From the NCBI GenBank assembly GCA_934591705.1, contig CAKTPM010000005.1, positions 972 to 64,971 of the forward strand: a stretch of 64,000 nucleotides of DNA, read 5' to 3'. Each line of letters starts with the position of its first letter. The first letter of the stretch is position 1. Made by a program: the position numbers and the translations under genes. Below the pieces are notes generated by a model. The model was not told where the DNA came from. It was given only the letters and a program-made list of their open reading frames with translations, and ran no database searches. Below, piece by piece: positions 43,188 to 64,000 of the stretch. The stretch is from an uncultured Oscillospiraceae bacterium. GTDB lineage: Bacteria; Bacillota; Clostridia; Oscillospirales; Oscillospiraceae.

Positions 43188-45623
43188 TTACTTCACCGTC
43201 AAATGCTTCGCCGCGGCCTTGAGCATCAGCTTCTTTACGCCCACGCCGTCAAAGGCGATCTCGATGAGGGCGTCGCCGCCCATGGGCCGCACGGAGAGCA
43301 CCATGCCCTTGCCGAAGGCGCTGTGGGTCACGCTCTGCCCCGGCTGGATGTCGGGCAGCGGGGTCTCGGCAGCCGCCGGTGCCCTGCGGGCGGAGGCCGC
43401 CGCGGACCGGGCCGTACCGGGCCGCCGGCGCTCTGCCTGGATGTCGATGCTCCGGGCGTAGCCGCCGTCCTGGATATAGTCGTCGCTCCAGTGGCGCTCC
43501 GGACGGGGCTCGGGCTTCCCCAGCCACTCCATACACGCCTCCGGTATCTCGCTTAAAAACCGGGAGGGCATGTTGGGAGTGGTGCGGCCGAAGAGCATCC
43601 GCTGCCGGGCATTGGTCATGGTGAGCTTTTTCATGGCCCGGGTCATGGCCACATAGCACAGCCGCCGCTCCTCCTCCATCTCCTCTTCCTCCGCCATGGC
43701 GCGATTGCCGGGAAAGACCCCCTCCTCCATGCCGGAGACGAAGACCTGGGGGAACTCCAGGCCCTTGGCACTGTGGACGGTCATCATCACCACGCAGTTG
43801 TCCCCTGCCGCGGCGTCGTCCAGATCCGTATAGAGGGCCACCTCGTCCAGGAATCCGGCAAGCGTCGGATCCTCCGGGTCGTTGTCCAGAAAGGCGTGGA
43901 TGCTGGAGCTGAGCTCCTCCACATTCTCCAGCCGCCCCCGGGACTCCAGATCGTCCTTCTCCTTCAGCATGGCGGTGTAGCCGGTCTTTTCGCAGACCTT
44001 TTCATAGTAGCCCACCAGGTCGCTGTTATCCAGCTCCGCCTGCAGTTGTGCGATAAGGGCTGCAAAGGATTCCATCTTTACAGCAGCGCTCTTCAGCTCC
44101 GGGTAGCTGCCGGCATTTTTCACCACCTCGAAGAGGGAGCTCCCCTCCTCGGCGGCGATGAGCTGGGCCTTGTCCACGGAGGTCTGGCCGATCTTTCGGG
44201 CCGGGACATTGATGATGCGCCGCAGACGCAGATCGTCGGCGGGATTGTTGATGACGCACAGATAGGCCAGCATATCCTTGACCTCGGCCCGGTCGAAGTA
44301 TTTCATCCCGCCGAAGATCTTATAGGGAACGCCGTTGCGCTTGAAGGCGTATTCCAGGGCGTTGGACTGGGCGTTCATGCGGTAGAGCACCGCGTGATCC
44401 CTCCAGCTTGCCCCTCGGTTGTAGCTCATCATGATCTGGCCTACGATGTAGTTTGCCTCGTCACTCTCATTGAAGCAGGTCTTCACCGTCACAAGCTCCC
44501 CGGCGCCGTTGTCCGTCCAGAGGGTCTTGCCCTTGCGGCCCCGGTTGTTGCGGATCACCGCGTTGGCGGCGTCCAAGATGTGCTGGGTGCTGCGGTAGTT
44601 CTGCTCCAGACGGATGGTCCGGGCATGGCGGTAGTCCTTTTCAAAGCCCAGGATGTTCTCGATATTCGCCCCCCGGAAGCGGTAGATGCTCTGGTCGTCA
44701 TCGCCCACCACGCAGATGTTCTCATACTCCCCTGCCAGCAGGTGGGCCAGCAGGTATTGCAGGTGGTTGGTATCCTGGTACTCGTCAATGAGCACATAGC
44801 GGAACCGGTGCTGATAGTAGGCCAGGGTCTCGGGGCTGCTCTGCAGCAGGCGCACCGTGTGCAGGATGATGTCGTCAAAGTCCAGGGCGTTGGCGTCCCA
44901 GAGCTTTTTATTGTAAAGTGCATATACTTTACCGATCCGCTGCCTGCGCCAATCCCCCATGGTGTCCGCCTGCTTTTGATAGGCGGATGGGTCCACCATA
45001 GCGTCCTTGGCGTTGGAGATGGCGGAGAGCACCTCCCGGGGCGGAAAGGTCTTTTCCTCCAGGGACAGCTCCTTGAGGCAGTCCTTGATGAGGCGCTTGG
45101 CATCGTCGGTATCGTAGATGGTGAAATCCCGGGACAGGCCAAGCTTATCGATGTCCCGCCGCAGGATGCGCACGCAGGCGCTGTGGAAGGTGCAGGCCCA
45201 CACATCCCGGGAGACCGCCGGGCCGAGCATGCGCTCCAGGCGCTCCTTGAGCTCGTTGGCCGCCTTGTTGGTAAAGGTGATGGCCAGTATCTCCCAGGGC
45301 CGGGCGGGCTCCACCGCGCAGAGATATTCCATCAGCGGACGCATCTCCTCCCGGGGACTTTGGGCGTACTGCTCCAGCAGCTCCGCGGCATCCTCGCTGA
45401 CAGGGACCGTCAGCTCCTCCGTGTCGCTCCCCCGGCCGAAGCGCAGGAGGTTGGCAATGCGGTGGATGAGCACCGTGGTCTTGCCGGAGCCGGCGCCCGC
45501 CAGCAGCAGAAGCGGCCCCTGGGTGGCCAAAACCCCCTGCCGCTGCATGGGATTCAGGTTTTTATATTCTGCGGCAATGGCCGCCGTTCTCGCCTCTATA
45601 AATCTTTTTTCCAATTCCGTCAT
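43188..45623 (-). CDS. pcrA: ATP-dependent DNA helicase PcrA/UvrD.
   Basis: Start MTELEKRFIEARTAAIAAEYKNLNPMQRQGV. Walker A GAGSGKTTVL. UvrD helicase motifs throughout. Confidence 0.9.
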   Translation of the reverse strand: MTELEKRFIEARTAAIAAEYKNLNPMQRQGVLATQGPLLLLAGAGSGKTTVLIHRIANLLRFGRGSDTEELTVPVSEDAAELLEQYAQSPREEMRPLMEYLCAVEPARPWEILAITFTNKAANELKERLERMLGPAVSRDVWACTFHSACVRILRRDIDKLGLSRDFTIYDTDDAKRLIKDCLKELSLEEKTFPPREVLSAISNAKDAMVDPSAYQKQADTMGDWRRQRIGKVYALYNKKLWDANALDFDDIILHTVRLLQSSPETLAYYQHRFRYVLIDEYQDTNHLQYLLAHLLAGEYENICVVGDDDQSIYRFRGANIENILGFEKDYRHARTIRLEQNYRSTQHILDAANAVIRNNRGRKGKTLWTDNGAGELVTVKTCFNESDEANYIVGQIMMSYNRGASWRDHAVLYRMNAQSNALEYAFKRNGVPYKIFGGMKYFDRAEVKDMLAYLCVINNPADDLRLRRIINVPARKIGQTSVDKAQLIAAEEGSSLFEVVKNAGSYPELKSAAVKMESFAALIAQLQAELDNSDLVGYYEKVCEKTGYTAMLKEKDDLESRGRLENVEELSSSIHAFLDNDPEDPTLAGFLDEVALYTDLDDAAAGDNCVVMMTVHSAKGLEFPQVFVSGMEEGVFPGNRAMAEEEEMEEERRLCYVAMTRAMKKLTMTNARQRMLFGRTTPNMPSRFLSEIPEACMEWLGKPEPRPERHWSDDYIQDGGYARSIDIQAERRRPGTARSAAASARRAPAAAETPLPDIQPGQSVTHSAFGKGMVLSVRPMGGDALIEIAFDGVGVKKLMLKAAAKHLTVK

Positions 45624-45726
45624 GGTGATGTCCTCTACAAATTGTGGTCTTGCTTTCATTTTAATACAAAATCCTGCGCAGGTCAACACAGTTTGCAGAA
45701 ATTCGCATTTTTGTTCTATTTTTTTA

Positions 45727-45780
45727 TTGACAAGAACGCTCGTTCGATATATAATGACAGCATAAATAGAACGCTTGTTT
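45727..45780 (+). promoter_or_regulatory. Consensus promoter TTGACA-17-TATAAT with an embedded LexA (Cheo-type) SOS box AGAACGCTCGTTCG, plus a second half-site-like AGAACGCTTGTTT.
   Basis: The Gram-positive LexA box consensus is CGAACRNRYGTTCG. The box occupies the spacer between -35 (45727-45732) and -10 (45750-45755). The second box sits near the predicted transcript start. Confidence 0.6.
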
Positions 45781-45795
45781 TTAGGAGGTCATATC

Positions 45796-45909
45796 ATGTC
45801 AGCTATAACCTATATCATCATCGTTCTCGGCGCCGCCTCCGTATCCGTCAATATCATGCGCTTTGTGGAGCGGGTGCAGCAGCCCCGCCGGCGCCGCCGC
45901 ACGGTATAG
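45796..45909 (+). CDS. Small (37 aa) hydrophobic peptide with a poly-Arg tail, encoded as the first cistron of the SOS-box transcript.
   Basis: RBS TAGGAGG 7 nt upstream of the ATG. MSAITYIIIVLGAASVSVNIMRFVERVQQPRRRRRTV (one TM plus a basic C-terminus). Its stop lies 3 nt before the radical-SAM ATG, which has no RBS of its own. Confidence 0.4.
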   Translation: MSAITYIIIVLGAASVSVNIMRFVERVQQPRRRRRTV

Positions 45910-45912
45910 GCC

Positions 45913-47181
45913 ATGGACCTTTTGGAGAAGCTGGAGATCCTCTCCGACGCCGCCAAGTATGATGCGGCGTGTACCTCCAGCGGTGTGCGCCGGGGCTTCG
46001 TGCCGGGAAAGGTGGGCAATACCACCTCCTCCATCGCCGGCTGCTGCCACAGCTTTTCGGCGGACGGGCGGTGCATCACCCTGCTGAAGGTATTGATGAC
46101 CAACGCCTGCGCCTACGACTGTAGGTACTGCGTCAACCGCCGCAGCAATGACACCCGCCGGGCCGCCTTTACACCCCGGGAGCTGGCGGAGCTGACCATA
46201 CAGTTTTACCGCCGCAACTATATTGAGGGGCTTTTCCTCTCCTCCGGGGTGCTGCGCTCCCCGGACTATACCACCGAGCGGATGATCGCCGCCCTGCGGC
46301 TGCTGCGGCAGGACTACGGCTTCAACGGCTACATCCACGCCAAGACCATCCCCGGCACCGCTCCGGAGCTGGTGCGGAAGCTGGGCTATCTGGCTGACCG
46401 CCTCAGCGTGAACATCGAGCTGCCCTCGGAGGCCGCCCTCAGTGCCCTGGCCCCGGATAAGTCCAAGTCCGCCATCCTGCGGCCCATGGGGCAGATCACC
46501 CGGCAGGTGCAGGAGAACCGGCAGGAGCTGGTGAAATACAAGCACGCCCCCGCCTTCGCCCCGGCGGGGCAGAGCACCCAGCTCATCGTGGGGGCCACCG
46601 GCGACACGGACCGACACATCCTGCAGCTCACGGAGTCGCTCTATCAAAAATACCGCCTCAAGCGGGTGTTTTTCAGCGCTTATGTGCCGGTGGTGGAAAA
46701 TGCCCTGCTCCCTGCCCCGGACACCAAGCCGCCCCTCCTCCGGGAGCACCGCCTCTACCAGGCGGACTGGCTGCTGCGGTTTTACGGCTTTTCCGCCTCG
46801 GAGCTCCTCAGCGACGACCAGCCGGACTTCGATCCGCTCCTGGACCCCAAGTGCACCTGGGCCCTTCGCCATCCGGCGTTTTTCCCGGTGGAGGTCATGA
46901 CCGCCGGCTATGAGACCCTTCTGCGGGTGCCCGGCATCGGTCCCACCGGTGCAAGGCGCATCTGCGCCGCCCGGCGGCAGAGCCGCCTGCGCCCGGAGGA
47001 TTTAAAAAAGCTGGGTGTGGTGATGAAGCGGGCCCAGTTCTTCATCACCTGCGGCGGCAAAGCAGCGGAGGGCCTGCGGTTTTCCCCGGAGACCCTGCCC
47101 GGGCAGCTGGCCTACCTGGAGCGGGGCCGTCTGCCCCAGGCATTTCCGGAGCAGCTGTCCCTTTTCGATGCAGTGGGGTGA
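45913..47181 (+). CDS. Putative DNA modification/repair radical SAM protein (TIGR03916-like).
   Basis: CAYDCRYC radical-SAM CxxxCxxC motif. C-terminal helix-hairpin-helix region (LRVPGIGPTGARRI). Paired with a DUF4130 gene. Confidence 0.8.
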   Translation: MDLLEKLEILSDAAKYDAACTSSGVRRGFVPGKVGNTTSSIAGCCHSFSADGRCITLLKVLMTNACAYDCRYCVNRRSNDTRRAAFTPRELAELTIQFYRRNYIEGLFLSSGVLRSPDYTTERMIAALRLLRQDYGFNGYIHAKTIPGTAPELVRKLGYLADRLSVNIELPSEAALSALAPDKSKSAILRPMGQITRQVQENRQELVKYKHAPAFAPAGQSTQLIVGATGDTDRHILQLTESLYQKYRLKRVFFSAYVPVVENALLPAPDTKPPLLREHRLYQADWLLRFYGFSASELLSDDQPDFDPLLDPKCTWALRHPAFFPVEVMTAGYETLLRVPGIGPTGARRICAARRQSRLRPEDLKKLGVVMKRAQFFITCGGKAAEGLRFSPETLPGQLAYLERGRLPQAFPEQLSLFDAVG

Positions 47182-47185
47182 GAGC

Positions 47186-47968
47186 ATGGCATGGCGTGAA
47201 GTGGTTTTACAATACGACGGCACCTATGAGGGGTTTCTCTGCTGCGTGTTCGAGAGCTATACCCATAAAGAATTCCCCACCGCCTTTTACGACGACGAGG
47301 AATTTTTTACCCTCTACGAGGTGCGTACCGTCCAGACGGTGCCTGCCCATGCCAAGCGGGTGCAAAGCAGCATTGAGCGCGTCTCTCCCACCGCCGGGCA
47401 GCTTTTACGGCGGGCCTTTTTCACCTGTATGGACAGTAAAGAGGAGCGCCTTTACAGCTGCGTCCGGAAGCTATATGCCCAGGGAGACGGGTTCCTGAAA
47501 AACATTTCCGACCCGGTATACCTACCCATCCACCGAGCCCTGCGGCACATGGCCGGGGAGGTGGAAAAGTACCGGGGCTTTGTGCGCTTTTCGGACTATA
47601 GCGGCGTTCTGGGGGCGGAGATCGCCCCGAAAAACCGGGTGCTGCCCCTGCTGCGGCGGCACTTCTGCAGCCGTTATGCCAACGAGCGCTTTTTCATCTA
47701 CGACCGCACCCACCGGGAGATGCTGCTCTATGCCGCCGGACGCTCCCGCATTGCCCGGGTGGACGGCCTGCAGCTGGACGCCCCCGACAGCGCGGAGGTC
47801 TTTTACCGCACCCTCTGGAAGCGGTTTTTTGATTCCGTATCCATTGCCCCCCGGAAAAATCCCCGCTGCCAGAACAGCTTTCTGCCCAAGCGCTACCGGG
47901 ATGTGATGACGGAGTTTCTCCCGGCGGACGCCGGGACTACTCCCGCAATGCCTCCCGCAGAGCCGTGA
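47186..47968 (+). CDS. DUF4130 (TIGR03915, UDG-superfamily-like) DNA metabolism protein.
   Basis: About 260 aa following the radical-SAM gene. YDGTYEGFLCCVFESY N-terminus, typical of the TIGR03915 partner. Confidence 0.7.
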   Translation: MAWREVVLQYDGTYEGFLCCVFESYTHKEFPTAFYDDEEFFTLYEVRTVQTVPAHAKRVQSSIERVSPTAGQLLRRAFFTCMDSKEERLYSCVRKLYAQGDGFLKNISDPVYLPIHRALRHMAGEVEKYRGFVRFSDYSGVLGAEIAPKNRVLPLLRRHFCSRYANERFFIYDRTHREMLLYAAGRSRIARVDGLQLDAPDSAEVFYRTLWKRFFDSVSIAPRKNPRCQNSFLPKRYRDVMTEFLPADAGTTPAMPPAEP

Positions 47969-48638
47969 TGGCCCGGCGCTCCAGCCGGGACACCTGCACC
48001 TGGGAGACCCCCAGGATCCGGGCCGCCTGCTGCTGGGTCATGCCCCGGTAGTAACGCAGCACGATGGTGAGCTTCTCCCGCTCCGGCAGCGCTTCGATAG
48101 CGCTGCGCAGGGAGAGCTTTTCCAGCAAGGGCAGCTCCTGCGGCTCCGCCGCCAGGGTGGACTCCAGGGTAAAGCCCTCGGCGGTCTCCCGCTGCAGCGA
48201 CTCCGGTGCTATATTGGCAAGCTCAATGGCGGCCACCTCCTCCGGGGGCAGCTGCAGCTCCCGGGCGAGCTCGCTCAATAGCGGCTCCCGGCCCAGGGCG
48301 CCCCGCAGCCGCTCCCGGGCCGACCAGACGCTCTGCCCCTTTTCCCGCATGGTGCGGCCCACCTTGATGGCGCCGTCATCCCGGATAAACCGGCGTATCT
48401 CCCCGGCGATCTTGGGCACGGCGTATGTAGAAAATTGCGTGCCGTACTGGGTGTCGAAGCCCCGTATGGCCTTGATGAGCCCGATGCAGCCCAGCTGGAA
48501 GAGGTCCTCGGAGTCCACACCGCAGCCGTAGTAGCGCTTCACCACGGCCCAGACCAGGCCGCTGTTTTCCTCCACCACCCGCTCACAGGCGGCGTCATCC
48601 CCCTGCTGCGCCCGCTCCAGGAGGGAGGTCCGGCTCAT
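47937..48638 (-). CDS. sigF: RNA polymerase sporulation sigma factor F.
   Basis: 233 aa. Region 2 (DLFQLGCIGLIKAIRGFD) and region 4 HTH (MTQQQAARILGVSQVQVSRLERRAI). Follows spoIIAB. Confidence 0.9.
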   Translation of the reverse strand: MSRTSLLERAQQGDDAACERVVEENSGLVWAVVKRYYGCGVDSEDLFQLGCIGLIKAIRGFDTQYGTQFSTYAVPKIAGEIRRFIRDDGAIKVGRTMREKGQSVWSARERLRGALGREPLLSELARELQLPPEEVAAIELANIAPESLQRETAEGFTLESTLAAEPQELPLLEKLSLRSAIEALPEREKLTIVLRYYRGMTQQQAARILGVSQVQVSRLERRAITALREALRE

Positions 48639-49505: not shown

Positions 49506-52139
49506 TCAGAAGCGCATGGCGGCTGCGGCCTCGTCCAGCTGGGCGATAAGGGCCCGGGCCTTCTCGGCCCGCTCACGCTCGGCATTCACCACATTCTCCG
49601 GTGCCCGGGCGGTGAAGCTCTCGTTGGCCAGCTTGGCCTCGATGCGCTGGAGGTTCTCCACGGCCTTCTGCCGCTCCTTGGCGATGCGCTCACGCTCGGC
49701 GGCAATGTCCACCAGCTCCGCCAGAGGCAGGTAGATGCTGGCGTCATGGGTGGCCACGCTGACCATGCCGCTCAGGTCGGCAGGGGCTTCGGTGGTCACG
49801 GTGAGCTCGCTGGCCCAGGCCATGCGGGTAATGAAGTGGCGGCCCTCCTCATAGTTTTTCGGCTGCTTGGTCACGATGATCATCTGCGCCTTCCGGGAGG
49901 GGGGCACATTCATTTCGCTGCGGCGGGCCCGGACGGCGGAGATAGCGTCCTTCACTGCCTCCATGGCGGCCTCATCCTCGGCAAAATGCAGCTTCTGGCG
50001 GTACTCCGGCCACTTGGCGGTGATGAGATAGTCCCCCTCGTGGGGCAGGGCCTGCCAGATCTCCTCGGTGATGAAGGGCATGAAGGGGTGCAGCAGCTCC
50101 AAGATCCGCAGGAGCACATAGCACAGCACATTCTCGGCGGCCAGCTTGGCGGCGGTGTCCTCGCCGTTGAGGCGGGTCTTGGTGAGCTCGATGTACCAGT
50201 CGCAATAGGTGTCCCAGATAAAGTCGTAGATCTTGGCGGAGGCCACACCCAGCTCATAGGCCTCCAGGTTCTCGGTGACCTCCCGGATGAGGGTATTGAG
50301 CTTGGAGAGCACCCACTTGTCCTCCAGCTCCAGCTTCTCGGGCAGCTCCACCTTTTGGATGGTGAGGTTCATCATCACAAAGCGGCTGGCGTTCCAGATC
50401 TTATTGGCGAAGTTGCGCATGGCCTCGCACTTCTCCACGAAAAAGCGCATATCGTTGCCGGGACTGTTGCCGGTGATGAGGTTGAAGCGCAGGGCATCGG
50501 CGCCGTATTTCTCCGCCATCTCCAGGGGGTCGATGCCGTTGCCCAGGGACTTGGACATCTTGCGGCCCTTTTCATCCCGAACCAGGCCGTGGATAAACAC
50601 GGTCTTGAAGGGCTCCTTCTTCATCTGCTCCATGCCGGAGAAGATCATCCGGGCCACCCAGAAGAAAATAATGTCGTAGCCGGTGACCATCACGGAGGTG
50701 GGATACCAGTAATTCAGGTCGGGGGCGTTCGGATCGGGCCAGCCCATGGTGGAGAAGGGCCACAGGGCGCTGCTGAACCAGGTGTCCAGCACATCCTCCT
50801 CCCGGGTCAGGCGGCTGCTGCCGCACTTCTCGCAGCAGGTGGGATCCTCGCGGCTCACATTGATGTGGCCGCAGTCATCGCAGTACCAGGCGGGGATCTG
50901 GTGGCCCCACCACAGCTGGCGGGAGATGCACCAGTCATGGACATTCTCCATCCAGTTGATATAGGTCTTGGTGAAGCGCTCCGGCACGAACTTGACGGTG
51001 CCGTCCTCCACCACCCGGATGGCCTCCTTGGCAAGGGGTGCCATCTTCACGAACCACTGGGCAGAGATCAGGGGCTCCACATCGTTGTGGCAGCGGTAGC
51101 AGGTGCCCACATTGTGGGAATAGGGCTCGGTCTTCACCAGATAGCCCTGGGCCTCCAGGTCGGCCACGATGGCCTTGCGGCACTCATAGCGGTCCATACC
51201 GTTGTACTTGCCGCCGTTTTCGTTGATGTGTCCGTCGTCGGCGATGACCCGGATGACCTCCAGGTTGTGCCGCAGGCCCACCTCAAAGTCGTTGGGGTCG
51301 TGGGCGGGGGTCATCTTCACGGCGCCGGTGCCGAAGCCGATCTCACAGTATTCATCGCCCACGATGGGGATCTCCCGGTTCATAATGGGCAGAATGCACT
51401 TTTTGCCGATGAGGTGGCGGAGCTTTTCATCCTCCGGATTCACCGCCACGCCGGTATCGCCCATCATGGTCTCCGGCCGGGTGGTGGCGATGATGATGTC
51501 GCCGCTGCCGTCCGCCAGGGGATAGCGGACATACCAGAGGCTGCCGGGCTTGTCGGTATACTCCACCTCGGCGTCGGAAAGGGCGGTGAGGCAGTGGGGG
51601 CACCAGTTGATGATGCGGCTGCCCTTATAGATAAGGCCCTTTTCATAGAGCTCGCAGAAGGTCTCGCGGACGGCCCGGGAGCAGCCCTCGTCCATGGTGA
51701 AGCGATCCCGGCTCCAGTCGCAGGAGGCGCCCATCTTCTTTTGCTGCTCCACGATGCGGTTGCCGTACTTTTCCTTCCAGGCCCACACCCGCTCCAGGAA
51801 CTTCTCGCGGCCCAGGTCATAGCGGCTGAGGCCCTCGTTGACCCGCAGGTCCTCCTCCACCTTGATCTGGGTGGCGATGCCGGCGTGGTCGCTGCCGGGG
51901 AGCCACAGCGCCTCATAGCCCTGCATCCGCTTAAAGCGGGTGAGGATGTCCTGGAGGGTGCAGTCCAGGGCGTGGCCCATGTGGAGCTGCCCGGTAACAT
52001 TGGGGGGCGGCATCACGATAGAAAAGGGCTTTTTATCGGGGTTGGGGGATGCATGGAAGCAGTCGCCGTCCATCCACATTTGGTAGATGCGGCCCTCCAC
52101 CTCCCGGGGATCATACACCTTCGGCAATTCTTTAGACAT
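49506..52139 (-). CDS. valS: Valine--tRNA ligase.
   Basis: HIGH (PNVTGQLHMGHA) and KMSKS motifs. Start MSKELPKVYDP after RBS GGAGAAACG. About 877 aa. Confidence 0.95.
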   Translation of the reverse strand: MSKELPKVYDPREVEGRIYQMWMDGDCFHASPNPDKKPFSIVMPPPNVTGQLHMGHALDCTLQDILTRFKRMQGYEALWLPGSDHAGIATQIKVEEDLRVNEGLSRYDLGREKFLERVWAWKEKYGNRIVEQQKKMGASCDWSRDRFTMDEGCSRAVRETFCELYEKGLIYKGSRIINWCPHCLTALSDAEVEYTDKPGSLWYVRYPLADGSGDIIIATTRPETMMGDTGVAVNPEDEKLRHLIGKKCILPIMNREIPIVGDEYCEIGFGTGAVKMTPAHDPNDFEVGLRHNLEVIRVIADDGHINENGGKYNGMDRYECRKAIVADLEAQGYLVKTEPYSHNVGTCYRCHNDVEPLISAQWFVKMAPLAKEAIRVVEDGTVKFVPERFTKTYINWMENVHDWCISRQLWWGHQIPAWYCDDCGHINVSREDPTCCEKCGSSRLTREEDVLDTWFSSALWPFSTMGWPDPNAPDLNYWYPTSVMVTGYDIIFFWVARMIFSGMEQMKKEPFKTVFIHGLVRDEKGRKMSKSLGNGIDPLEMAEKYGADALRFNLITGNSPGNDMRFFVEKCEAMRNFANKIWNASRFVMMNLTIQKVELPEKLELEDKWVLSKLNTLIREVTENLEAYELGVASAKIYDFIWDTYCDWYIELTKTRLNGEDTAAKLAAENVLCYVLLRILELLHPFMPFITEEIWQALPHEGDYLITAKWPEYRQKLHFAEDEAAMEAVKDAISAVRARRSEMNVPPSRKAQMIIVTKQPKNYEEGRHFITRMAWASELTVTTEAPADLSGMVSVATHDASIYLPLAELVDIAAERERIAKERQKAVENLQRIEAKLANESFTARAPENVVNAERERAEKARALIAQLDEAAAAMRF

Positions 52140-52149
52140 ATCGTTTCTC

Positions 52150-52440
52150 CTTTTTTCGGTATTCGGCAAAACAAAAACGCCCCGCTTTGCCATAGGGCAA
52201 AACAGGGCGAACCAAGGTCCGCGGTACCACCTGTATTCGGGATCGCTCCCGCACTCATGGGTGCCATAACACCCTGTCCCGCTAACGGAGGACCACCGCT
52301 GCCGCTTACTTTATCCTTTCAGCGCAAAGCTCCGGGACGACTTCGGCGTTTCTGCTGAGGAGCTTGCACCGCCCGCTCCCTCTCTTCACAGCCATCCGCG
52401 CCTACTGCTTCCCTTCATCGCCGTAAAATATTGAGGTAAG
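52150..52440 (-). ncRNA. T-box riboswitch leader of valS (with upstream promoter TTGACA-17-TATACT at about 52445-52475).
   Basis: Minus-strand T-box sequence AATACAGGTGGTACCGCGG (RC of + 52219-52240). Followed by the terminator CGCCCtgttTTGCCctatGGCAAagcgGGGCG+TTTTTGTTTTG, then the valS RBS. Confidence 0.75.
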
Positions 52441-62880: not shown

Positions 62881-62954
62881 TGGCAGCGGGAGAAGGATTC
62901 GAACCCTCACATACGGAGTCAGAGTCCGCTGTGCTACCTTTACACAATCCCGCT
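62881..62954 (-). tRNA. tRNA-Gln (anticodon CUG), CCA encoded.
   Basis: Manual fold of the minus-strand sequence AGCGGGATTGTGTAAAGGTAGCACAGCGGACTCTGACTCCGTATGTGAGGGTTCGAATCCTTCTCCCGCTGCCA. 7-bp acceptor stem. Anticodon stem GCGGA/TCCGT with loop CT-CTG-AC. T-arm GAGGG-TTCGAAT-CCTTC. Promoter GTTGACA-17-TATAAT about 25 nt upstream. Confidence 0.7.
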
Positions 62955-63639: not shown

Positions 63640-63792
63640 AAATCCCCGCATGGCGAGCCACGCAGGCGTCGCAATGCGGAAACAAAAGCTGTATGATCGC
63701 ATTCCTACGCCGGCATTACCCGGATCAGGTGTGAGGGACACAAGCGGCCATTCGCTTGATCTCAGCCGGTATGCACCAGCGCCCCTTGGGTT
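63640..63792 (-). ncRNA. TPP (THI-box) riboswitch with terminator expression platform.
   Basis: Minus strand: GGGGCGC..CGGCUGAGA...CCCUCACACCUGAUCCGGGUAAUGCCGGCGUAGGAAUGCG matches the THI-box (CUGAGA ... ACCUGAUCNGGNUAAUACCNGCGNAGGGA). Terminator CCGCAT..ATGCGGGGATTTTTT at about 63640-63680, then RBS and thiT ATG. Confidence 0.75.
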
Positions 63793-64000
63793 GTGACGCT
63801 ATCTTAGCATTCTCCCCGCCGCCTGTCAAGTACTTTCTGCCGCCGTCCGCCAGTGGCGTACAGTTTTCCTTTTTTCCGGTTGCCAAAAGTTTTTCTTGTG
63901 TTATAATGGCCCTACGGGATCATCCCGAGAACGACGAGAGTTGAGGAAAACTGCGTATGAAACCCCAGGAAAAGCTGAATATGACCATGCTCTGCGACTT

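Follow-up and report, generated by a model that had tools for sequence, protein, structure and literature searches.

Small integral membrane proteins that inhibit cell division during the SOS response are a widespread strategy (PMC13396833, PMC4211646, PMC6051672). In Caulobacter crescentus, the 29-amino-acid (aa) inner membrane protein SidA is SOS induced and inhibits division by acting on FtsW (PMC4211646), and in Gram-positive bacteria the membrane-bound division inhibitors of this response are YneA of Bacillus subtilis, SosA of Staphylococcus aureus, and ChiZ of Mycobacterium tuberculosis (PMC13396833, PMC6851548, PMC6051672). LexA is also documented, in other phyla, to control an operon encoding a radical S-adenosylmethionine protein (rSAM) and a DUF4130(-UDG) protein (PMC3765255, PMC4951493). 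For the dominant, mostly uncultured gut Clostridia, the SOS response is known almost solely via motif searches, and a damage-induced membrane effector of this group was not described in the literature searched. Here, we analyzed a 64,000-nucleotide stretch of DNA from an uncultured Oscillospiraceae bacterium (assembly GCA_934591705.1, contig CAKTPM010000005.1, positions 972 to 64,971, forward strand), which we call the window. In it, a small open reading frame (sORF) for a 37-aa peptide lies between a promoter with LexA boxes and an rSAM-DUF4130 gene pair. With a probability of roughly 60%, and judged from sequence comparisons, this unit is an SOS operon repressed by LexA, the first cistron of which encodes a genuine 37-aa membrane micropeptide of an unnamed family.

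Results

The sORF is a conserved coding gene

Eighty loci encoding relatives of the rSAM were taken from species-representative genomes. Sixteen loci in which the rSAM is 75 to 80% identical and the upstream flank is intact (L001 to L016) form, together with the window, a set of 17; they originate from uncultured Oscillospiraceae, Vescimonas, Oscillibacter sp. CAG:241, and Brotocaccenecus. Locus L013 belongs to a cultured strain, Brotocaccenecus cirricatena CLA-AA-H272. A homologous ORF of 35 to 43 codons was present in the same position in all 17 loci. A first-pass annotation of the window, made from the sequence alone, had named a lack of conservation in related genomes as the finding that would speak against the small gene; the opposite was found, and the pattern of substitution points to purifying selection. 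The median pairwise nonsynonymous divergence (dN) of the sORF was 0.43 versus a synonymous divergence (dS) of 1.14, variability at the three codon positions was 0.24, 0.15, and 0.45, and the pN/pS ratio was 0.51 in frame versus 1.12 and 1.91 when the same alignment was read in the two shifted frames. Differences in the length of the C-terminal arginine tail amounted to whole codons. More distant rSAM loci did not have the sORF; two of them (L017 and L076) are uninformative, as their contigs end upstream. One locus of the set, L010 (CAVHCH010000115.1), is labeled "Bacteroidaceae bacterium" and has a pcrA-sORF-rSAM locus of the Oscillospiraceae type with an rSAM that is 77% identical; it is probably misbinned.

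The sORF has already been annotated by gene callers in public assemblies, and the exact peptide of the window was found on 106 contigs. A profile of 16 orthologues, used for a family search, retrieved 281 clusters at 90% identity, and an exhaustive profile search of 1.84 billion representatives gave 95 clusters at 50% identity (E <= 1e-3). The matches were 29 to 47 aa long, apart from some longer products; those of them that were retrieved turned out to be upstream start miscalls, a stop-loss read-through (P0141), or a fusion (P0140). P0141 (79 aa) is a stop-loss variant of the stand-alone peptide described below and reads into the downstream hairpin region; P0140 (162 aa) ends in a perfect family peptide and is probably a miscall or an assembly chimera. 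The peptide family had no match in Pfam, NCBIfam, PHROGs, or PADLOC, in Pfam, NCBIfam, and PADLOC not even at E <= 10, and the peptide string was also not found in the supplementary files, which are possibly incomplete, to two catalogues of gut small proteins. On the evidence of these alignments, the sORF is a genuine conserved coding gene that is under purifying selection and has a strong Shine-Dalgarno (SD) sequence.

Two or three LexA-type operators overlay the promoter

The sORF is preceded by a sigma-A-type promoter (Table 1) that is the only site in the region to reach a perfect score of 12/12 in a promoter scan, and a LexA (Cheo) box, Box B, lies in its spacer, as the first-pass annotation had seen. 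The promoter alignment shows this promoter in all 17 sORF loci and in the stand-alone lineage. The core of Box B, GAACGCTCGTTC (45734 to 45745), is the sole exact GAAC-N4-GTTC in the 64-kb window. A second site, Box C, is located at about +8 to +19 of the predicted transcript, over the predicted transcription start. The whole window contains nine sites with at most one mismatch to the LexA box, and two of the nine are in the sORF promoter. The -35 and -10 elements and both boxes are conserved across the 17 species-level loci, and Boxes B and C are found again in the stand-alone lineage. In most relatives a third site, Box A, reads GAA(T/A)nTTTGTTC with one mismatch (consensus, tAGAAttTTTGTTCgAT). 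Counted at up to one mismatch, promoters of the sORF clade have 2.9 LexA-like boxes versus 0.9 at other rSAM loci (p = 6e-10); the rSAM promoters of other Firmicutes typically have one GAACATATGTTC in the spacer. As read from the aligned promoters, two or three LexA-type operators overlay the promoter: in the spacer, at the transcript start, and, in most relatives, upstream of the -35 element. An operator that overlaps the promoter and is conserved in orthologous promoters, as expected of a member of the Cheo-box regulon, is therefore present.

Box A is also situated about 20 nt upstream of the -35 element of the divergent helicase promoter and may serve the regulation of pcrA instead or additionally. 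A near-identical promoter, TTTACA-AGAACATATGTTCTAT-GnTATAAT with one perfect palindromic LexA box, precedes many rSAM-DUF4130 operons of Clostridia and Negativicutes; in L020, L022, L028, L039, L051, and others, such a TTTACA-type promoter lies about 30 to 60 nt upstream of the rSAM gene. Since promoter and box are nearly identical across those operons, SOS control of the pair appears to be strongly conserved. An S24-motif search found no lexA gene in the window.

The rSAM gene lacks a ribosome-binding site where the sORF is present

The mean SD:anti-SD duplex energy in the clade was -10.9 kcal/mol for the sORF and -1.3 kcal/mol for the rSAM gene (-3.0 kcal/mol for the rSAM gene of the window). 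At loci without the sORF, the rSAM value was -7.8 kcal/mol versus the -1.3 kcal/mol of the sORF clade (p = 3e-8). Indeed, the rSAM gene was without its own SD in every sORF-bearing locus, and an SD was present wherever the sORF was absent. Between the sORF stop and the rSAM ATG lie 1 to 24 nt in about 115 loci, made up of the 17 genomes plus about 100 loci from metagenomes (4 to 24 nt in the latter), and an overlap of the two genes was never seen. Because the SD of the rSAM gene is missing exactly where the sORF is present, translational coupling is the natural reading, and we infer that the SD of the sORF is the sole ribosome entry for rSAM-DUF4130, so that the repair enzymes would be made only via translation of the sORF. 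A conserved RNA structure linking the sORF and the rSAM start was not found (alifold, -3.95 kcal/mol), and an RNA structure gating the rSAM start was rejected (fold z = 0.06, 0 covarying pairs).

The ATG of the rSAM gene at 45913 is the earliest possible start codon in its frame, and homologues align from residue 1. The rSAM scored 624.6 bits against TIGR03916 (cutoff, 343.5), and its only Pfam matches were Radical_SAM, Fer4_12, and HHH, the last being weak. The DUF4130 protein scored 188.6 bits against TIGR03915 (cutoff, 112.25) and matched PF13566 at E = 4e-41. Both genes thus exceed the curated cutoffs and are adjacent, as expected of a TIGR03916/TIGR03915 pair. The layout that the first-pass annotation had described, that is, a hydrophobic peptide with a polyarginine tail and a strong ribosome-binding site that ends 3 nt before an rSAM gene without one, followed by a DNA repair pair, is confirmed in all of these parts; only the ATG of the sORF has to be moved, from 45797 to 45796.

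Peptide anatomy and possible functions

The alignment of the 17 peptides reads MTTxGxxIxLLGAGSxAxNxMRLIDRIDxP(R)n. A conserved juxtamembrane motif, M-R-[LF]-[IV]-[DE]-x-[ILV]-[DEQ]-x-P, is followed by the polyarginine tail, and the family as a whole shares a hydrophobic helix containing an invariant G-A, which is followed by [ML]-[RK]-[LI]-[IV]-[DE]-x-[IL]-[DE]-x-P and a basic tail. The Kyte-Doolittle hydropathy over 19 residues has its maximum of 2.04 at residues 3 to 21. AlphaFold2, run with the family alignment, predicted one helix from residues 2 to 28 (pLDDT, 84.5) and a disordered tail from Q29-P30 on. Positively charged flanks of a transmembrane (TM) helix stay in the cytoplasm (positive-inside rule); by this rule the arginine tail and the amphipathic R-L-I-D-x-L-E segment are predicted to be cytoplasmic, with about 2 residues outside. 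By these predictions and its LexA-box promoter, the peptide is a small single-pass membrane protein under putative LexA control, as SOS division inhibitors are. These inhibitors, to which DivS also belongs, are a functional class and not a family of homologues; they block division when induced and bind a late divisome protein, such as FtsW or FtsN. An extracellular effector domain, such as the LysM domain of YneA and ChiZ or the C-terminal segment of SosA, is not part of it, as only about 2 residues precede the TM helix.

By analogy to SidA, SosA, YneA, or proteins of the Kil type, the peptide could be a modulator of a specific membrane protein that brakes division or growth during repair; we favor this possibility, at odds somewhat below even. 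Such a modulator would act through the conserved TM helix and the R-L-I-D-x-L-E-x-P juxtamembrane face. It is favored because the best-conserved part of the peptide is a specific motif on the cytoplasmic face and not bare hydrophobicity, because neither an antisense RNA nor an occluded SD was found, and because a close homologue is an early prophage gene, as described below; early depolarization of its host would presumably defeat a phage's own purpose.

A toxin like TisB, DinQ, or Fst, which would oligomerize in the membrane after SOS induction and dissipate the proton motive force, causing growth arrest or persistence, would fit a short hydrophobic helix that ends in charged residues and is encoded downstream of a LexA promoter, and DinQ is a precedent for an SOS-controlled toxic peptide with a single TM helix (PMC3567139). 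Multiple operators suggest the tight repression that is expected for a harmful product, and within the TM helix a conserved Asn/Gln and the G-A motif of small residues could allow the peptide to self-associate. Of the hallmarks of type I toxins (TisB/IstR, DinQ/AgrB, Fst, and BsrG), the sORF has the small hydrophobic membrane peptide (hydropathy, 2.04; predicted helix, residues 2 to 28); a cis- or trans-encoded antisense RNA with its own promoter, a structured 5' untranslated region (UTR) that hides the ribosome-binding site, and the sequence of a described family were not found. A conserved minus-strand promoter over or after the sORF was not found in the window, L007, or L203, although a noncanonical small RNA may exist, and Rfam, searched at the gathering threshold and at E <= 1, gave no match at the locus. 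Being strong, the SD also lies outside any unusual structure (5' UTR z = 0.06), there is no similarity to any toxin family, and conservation peaks in the cytoplasmic juxtamembrane motif and not just in hydrophobicity. Moreover, the gene is apparently cotranslated with repair enzymes, and it has homologues in early operons of prophages, where early depolarization of the host would be expected to harm the phage. A toxin is thus unlikely, and the analogy to TisB and DinQ drawn in the first-pass annotation could not be upheld.

Relatives in mobile elements

The genomic context of nine divergent family members was examined, and seven of them were in a prophage or mobile-element context. P0163, which matches the L007 peptide nearly residue for residue [IGAL(T/S)VSV(Q/N)IMRLIDRLERPR], is encoded in the early operon of a prophage, in the order integrase, cI-like and cro-like helix-turn-helix (HTH) genes, phrog_6058, peptide, a 57-aa gene, YqaJ, DUF1351, RecT, and SSB; the peptide gene is joined to both neighbors by ATGA overlaps. 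P0196 is in a string of small early genes after two HTH repressors, P0187 adjoins a NikA-like gene, P0179 is preceded by siphovirus tail genes and has Lar and a relaxase nearby, P0204 is between ParB-N/D12-methylase/DUF7694 genes and a resolvase, and P0174 follows holin-like genes. P0226 is next to an integrase and is preceded by an acidic 36-aa sORF. P0168 again has the arrangement pcrA, LexA boxes, sORF, and rSAM, and the contig of P0171 is too short to judge the context. As far as these contexts show, the family is largely one of mobile elements, with one branch fixed at a host SOS locus, and the peptide gene has probably been exchanged with mobile elements.

The stop of the acidic 36-aa sORF, MCLLFLSWLFGNSNQESDEELDDFLLMEMIEEEDDE, overlaps the ATG of P0226 (ATGA), with an integrase fragment adjacent (L213, 929 to 1152; L214, 590 to 813). 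The two may constitute an acidic/basic two-peptide module.

These contexts, among them an early operon beside YqaJ/RecT and neighborhoods with Lar, ParB-methyltransferase, NikA, relaxase, or integrase genes, would also agree with a function retained from a mobile element and put under SOS control, such as superinfection exclusion, antidefense, or another kind of host takeover, which could protect the cell when neighboring prophages are induced. However, the family matched neither a PADLOC defense model nor an annotated PHROG, and throughout the clade the gene is fixed in the chromosome at a single syntenic position, as a host function would be. A retained mobile-element function, which is computationally indistinguishable from a division brake, is quite unlikely.

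A lineage that has kept the sORF without the enzymes

A scan of metagenomes with the back-translated motif gave 120 matches, about 115 of which were true and 5 due to chance. Nearly all true matches with enough downstream sequence had the order pcrA (divergent), sORF, rSAM, DUF4130. In four loci (L082, L084, L128, and L149), pcrA, all three boxes, the SD, and an intact sORF were present, whereas rSAM and DUF4130 were missing; in these stand-alone loci, a strong hairpin (-28.5 kcal/mol) and then sigF come directly after the sORF. The stand-alone peptide was found on 774 contigs and is indexed in 1273 blocks of the collection, and all eight long contigs inspected (L203 to L210; human-gut samples, including Hadza) had the stand-alone layout. 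Compared to the closest rSAM-bearing relative, L004, both flanks are 81% identical, and about 2.2 kb of L004 is replaced by about 170 nt that resembles the hairpin region after DUF4130 in L004. By this comparison, the stand-alone form is a clean deletion of two genes that left promoter, sORF, and terminal hairpin as one unit. Within the lineage, nine synonymous and one nonsynonymous polymorphic sites were counted; we did not use this count as a test, since 8 of the 12 contigs had been retrieved by exact identity of the peptide.

The stand-alone loci bear on the second proposal of the first-pass annotation, a regulatory leader. In a pure translated leader, translation of the sORF or a stall at P-R-R-R-R-R would set the level of rSAM-DUF4130 and the peptide itself would be functionless. 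The rSAM start without an SD so close behind the sORF stop in every locus fits this proposal, and the Pro-polyarginine C terminus is conserved in character. However, purifying selection acts on the amino acids of the TM helix and the juxtamembrane motif, and the intact sORF was kept with promoter, SD, and terminal hairpin where rSAM-DUF4130 was deleted. Homologues in mobile elements have unrelated downstream genes, with no rSAM nearby, and no RNA structure is conserved between the sORF and the rSAM start. A leader peptide or upstream ORF exists only together with the downstream gene it regulates, and its peptide sequence is dispensable or confined to an arrest motif; this is not the case for the sORF, and a pure leader is very unlikely. 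By its conservation and distribution, the peptide is probably not just a leader but a new membrane effector that is induced by DNA damage.

That the peptide belongs to the enzyme pair, as a membrane tether or subunit of rSAM-DUF4130 or as an rSAM substrate resembling a ribosomally synthesized and posttranslationally modified peptide (RiPP), is most improbable: the position immediately upstream of the rSAM gene is a classic RiPP layout and strict cotranslation would fit a subunit, but more than 60 rSAM-DUF4130 loci of other clades do without such a peptide, the rSAM is a TIGR03916 protein with a helix-hairpin-helix (HhH) DNA-binding motif and no further Pfam domains (a RiPP maturase would have a SPASM/twitch or RRE domain) that is paired with DUF4130/UDG and LexA regulated in several phyla (PMC3765255, PMC4951493), and the peptide, a TM helix without a Cys/Ser/Thr-rich core, shows no strict co-occurrence with the enzymes and persists without them in the stand-alone lineage and in phages, so that both a RiPP precursor and an enzyme subunit were rejected.

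Neighborhood of the operon

The features of the locus are listed in Table 1. In tblastn searches, pcrA was found upstream only in L001 to L016, and its synteny with the sORF is thus confined to the clade that bears the sORF. On the downstream side, sigF-spoIIAB-spoIIAA and then valS follow in convergent orientation; the call of the sigF-like gene is backed by the Pfam annotation of the identical locus L201.

Table 1. Coordinates of the features of the sORF locus in the window
Feature	Position	Strand	Remarks
PcrA/UvrD-type helicase gene	43188..45623	-	Divergent; TIGR01073 pcrA 841 bits, below curated cutoff of 911
Helicase promoter-like site TTGACC-17-TAAAAT	45658..45686	-	GGTCAAC element conserved in promoter alignment
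Box A, LexA-like site	45705..45716	.	Upstream of -35; in window GCATTTTTGTTC, 2 mismatches
Sigma-A-type promoter TTGACA-17-TATAAT	45727..45755	+	-35, 45727-45732; -10, 45750-45755; 12/12 match
Box B, LexA (Cheo) box AGAACGCTCGTTCG	45733..45746	.	Within promoter spacer
Box C, LexA-like box GAACGCTTGTTT	45769..45780	.	35 nt downstream of Box B, just past -10
Shine-Dalgarno AGGAGG	45783..45788	+	7 nt before sORF ATG
sORF, predicted 37-aa single-pass membrane micropeptide MSAITYIIIVLGAASVSVNIMRFVERVQQPRRRRRTV	45796..45909	+	Stop TAG, 45907-45909
sORF-rSAM junction	45910..45915	+	GCC (3 nt), then rSAM ATG, no SD; putative termination-reinitiation site
rSAM DNA modification/repair protein, 422 aa	45913..47181	+	CxxxCxxC motif, HhH motif, TIGR03916, PF04055
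DUF4130/TIGR03915 partner protein	47186..47968	+	Alternative start at 47168 would overlap rSAM stop
sigF-like sigma factor gene	47937..48638	-	Convergent; first of sigF-spoIIAB-spoIIAA; right border of the unit

At their 3' ends, the DUF4130 gene (+) and the sigF-like gene (-) share 32 nt (47937 to 47968), and no terminator separates them; in L004 and similar relatives there is instead a strong hairpin behind DUF4130. A T-box leader (RF00230, 122.9 bits) is located at 52200 to 52427 (-), directly upstream of valS (49506 to 52193, -). Near the right end of the window are a tRNA gene (62884 to 62954, -) and a TPP riboswitch (66.3 bits; 63685 to 63796, -). In L033, at about 2740 to 2900 and upstream of the rSAM promoter, two repeats of about 32 nt, GTCACCTCCCTCGCGGGAGGT[GA]TGGATTGAAA, and a spacer resemble the end of a CRISPR array.

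Discussion

If the unit is an SOS operon as we propose, DNA damage would remove LexA and the operon mRNA would be made. Ribosomes would load at the SD of the sORF and make the peptide, which would insert with its N terminus out and its C terminus in, the arginine tail being placed on the cytoplasmic face of the membrane. Terminating ribosomes would reinitiate 3 nt downstream at the rSAM ATG, and synthesis of rSAM-DUF4130 would depend on translation of the sORF. More speculative, and rather doubtful, is the extension of this scheme to the whole group: the family would provide many gut Clostridia, a large group of Oscillospiraceae, with their SOS checkpoint effector, derived from a Kil-like early gene that was captured from prophages, brought under triple LexA control, and necessarily translated before rSAM-DUF4130. 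If true, the brake and the repair activity would be made in fixed order and ratio from one mRNA.

Several findings weigh against our main reading. A single exact LexA box is not significant by itself, since 0.53 exact GAAC-N4-GTTC sites are expected per window by chance, and Box A is degenerate in the window, with 2 mismatches. The argument for a division brake is one of analogy only: in sequence the peptide does not resemble SidA, YneA, SosA, or Kil, and it has essentially no extracellular part, unlike YneA and SosA. A tblastn search of 50,697 GenBank phages with two family members gave no match, and one scan of IMG/VR with a degenerate pattern gave only a chance match inside a helicase gene; the link to phages comes from prophage-like metagenome contigs and not from catalogued phages. 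The stand-alone state was seen in one species-level lineage only, and the purely synonymous variation among L203 to L210 is biased by ascertainment.

As far as the libraries and the literature searched go, the peptide family, its placement as the first cistron and apparent only point of ribosome entry of the repair operon, the extra operators, the stand-alone form, and the prophage relatives are new. Already known were the regulation of rSAM-DUF4130 operons by LexA and the concept of small membrane proteins induced in the SOS response; the first-pass annotation, which expected novelty of a coupled upstream peptide cistron, did not mention that LexA control of rSAM/DUF4130(-UDG) is in the literature (PMC3765255, PMC4951493). 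The sORF is a concrete and abundant candidate for an effector; its regulatory signature is clear, and the stand-alone lineage amounts to a natural knockout of the other operon genes. It would be an example of a micropeptide that gates the translation of a more ancient repair operon whose own ribosome-binding site has been lost. The sORF also offers a handle on the uncharacterized rSAM-DUF4130 system, as the pair should be expressed in these species only if the sORF is translated. Finally, it ties a chromosomal SOS gene to unannotated early genes of prophages, and the role of the peptide may explain a recurrent "dark-matter" gene of phages.

Like SidA, the sORF product is tiny, predicted to have a single TM helix with almost nothing outside the membrane, putatively under LexA control, and apparently free of control by antisense RNA. 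It differs from SidA in sequence, and the two come from different phyla. SidA is encoded by a solo gene, whereas the sORF is the first cistron and, by our reading, the sole ribosome entry of a repair operon, and its family has, unlike SidA, the conserved cytoplasmic R-L-I-D-x-L-E-x-P motif and a polyarginine tail.

YneA, SosA, and ChiZ share with the sORF peptide the putative SOS induction, the single N-terminal TM helix, and the Gram-positive host, and it is the TM helix that directs YneA to the divisome. They are not homologous to it and are larger (about 77 to 105 aa versus 35 to 43 aa for the sORF family), and they need an extracellular domain or extension (LysM or a C-terminal segment), whereas the C terminus of the sORF peptide is polyarginine and predicted to be cytoplasmic.

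Among phages, lambda Kil, Rac KilR, and SPO1 gp56 are early inhibitors of host division; lambda kil is found beside exo-bet-gam, its product is soluble, and such early operons are switched on after DNA damage. The gene of P0163, which is the second one past the cro-like gene and lies shortly ahead of the YqaJ/RecT module, resembles lambda kil in position. It is not similar to kil in sequence, and the phage homologues of the sORF are without an annotated PHROG.

The Escherichia coli SOS type I toxins of TisB/IstR-1 and DinQ/AgrB (PMC3567139) resemble the sORF in the LexA-box promoter and a single-TM peptide of about 30 aa. They are not homologous to it, and neither an antitoxin small RNA nor a translationally inert primary transcript was found for the sORF, which, in contrast to them, has relatives in early operons of prophages and would be cotranslated with downstream enzymes.

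The known rSAM/DUF4130-UDG operon (PMC3765255, PMC4951493, bioRxiv 10.64898/2026.08.19.745780) is matched by the locus in its ordinary gene pair and in the LexA box of the promoter, as in many Clostridia. Elsewhere, this operon has one box, its own SD, and no upstream peptide, whereas in the sORF clade the boxes number two or three, the sORF is the gene with the SD, and pcrA is adjacent.

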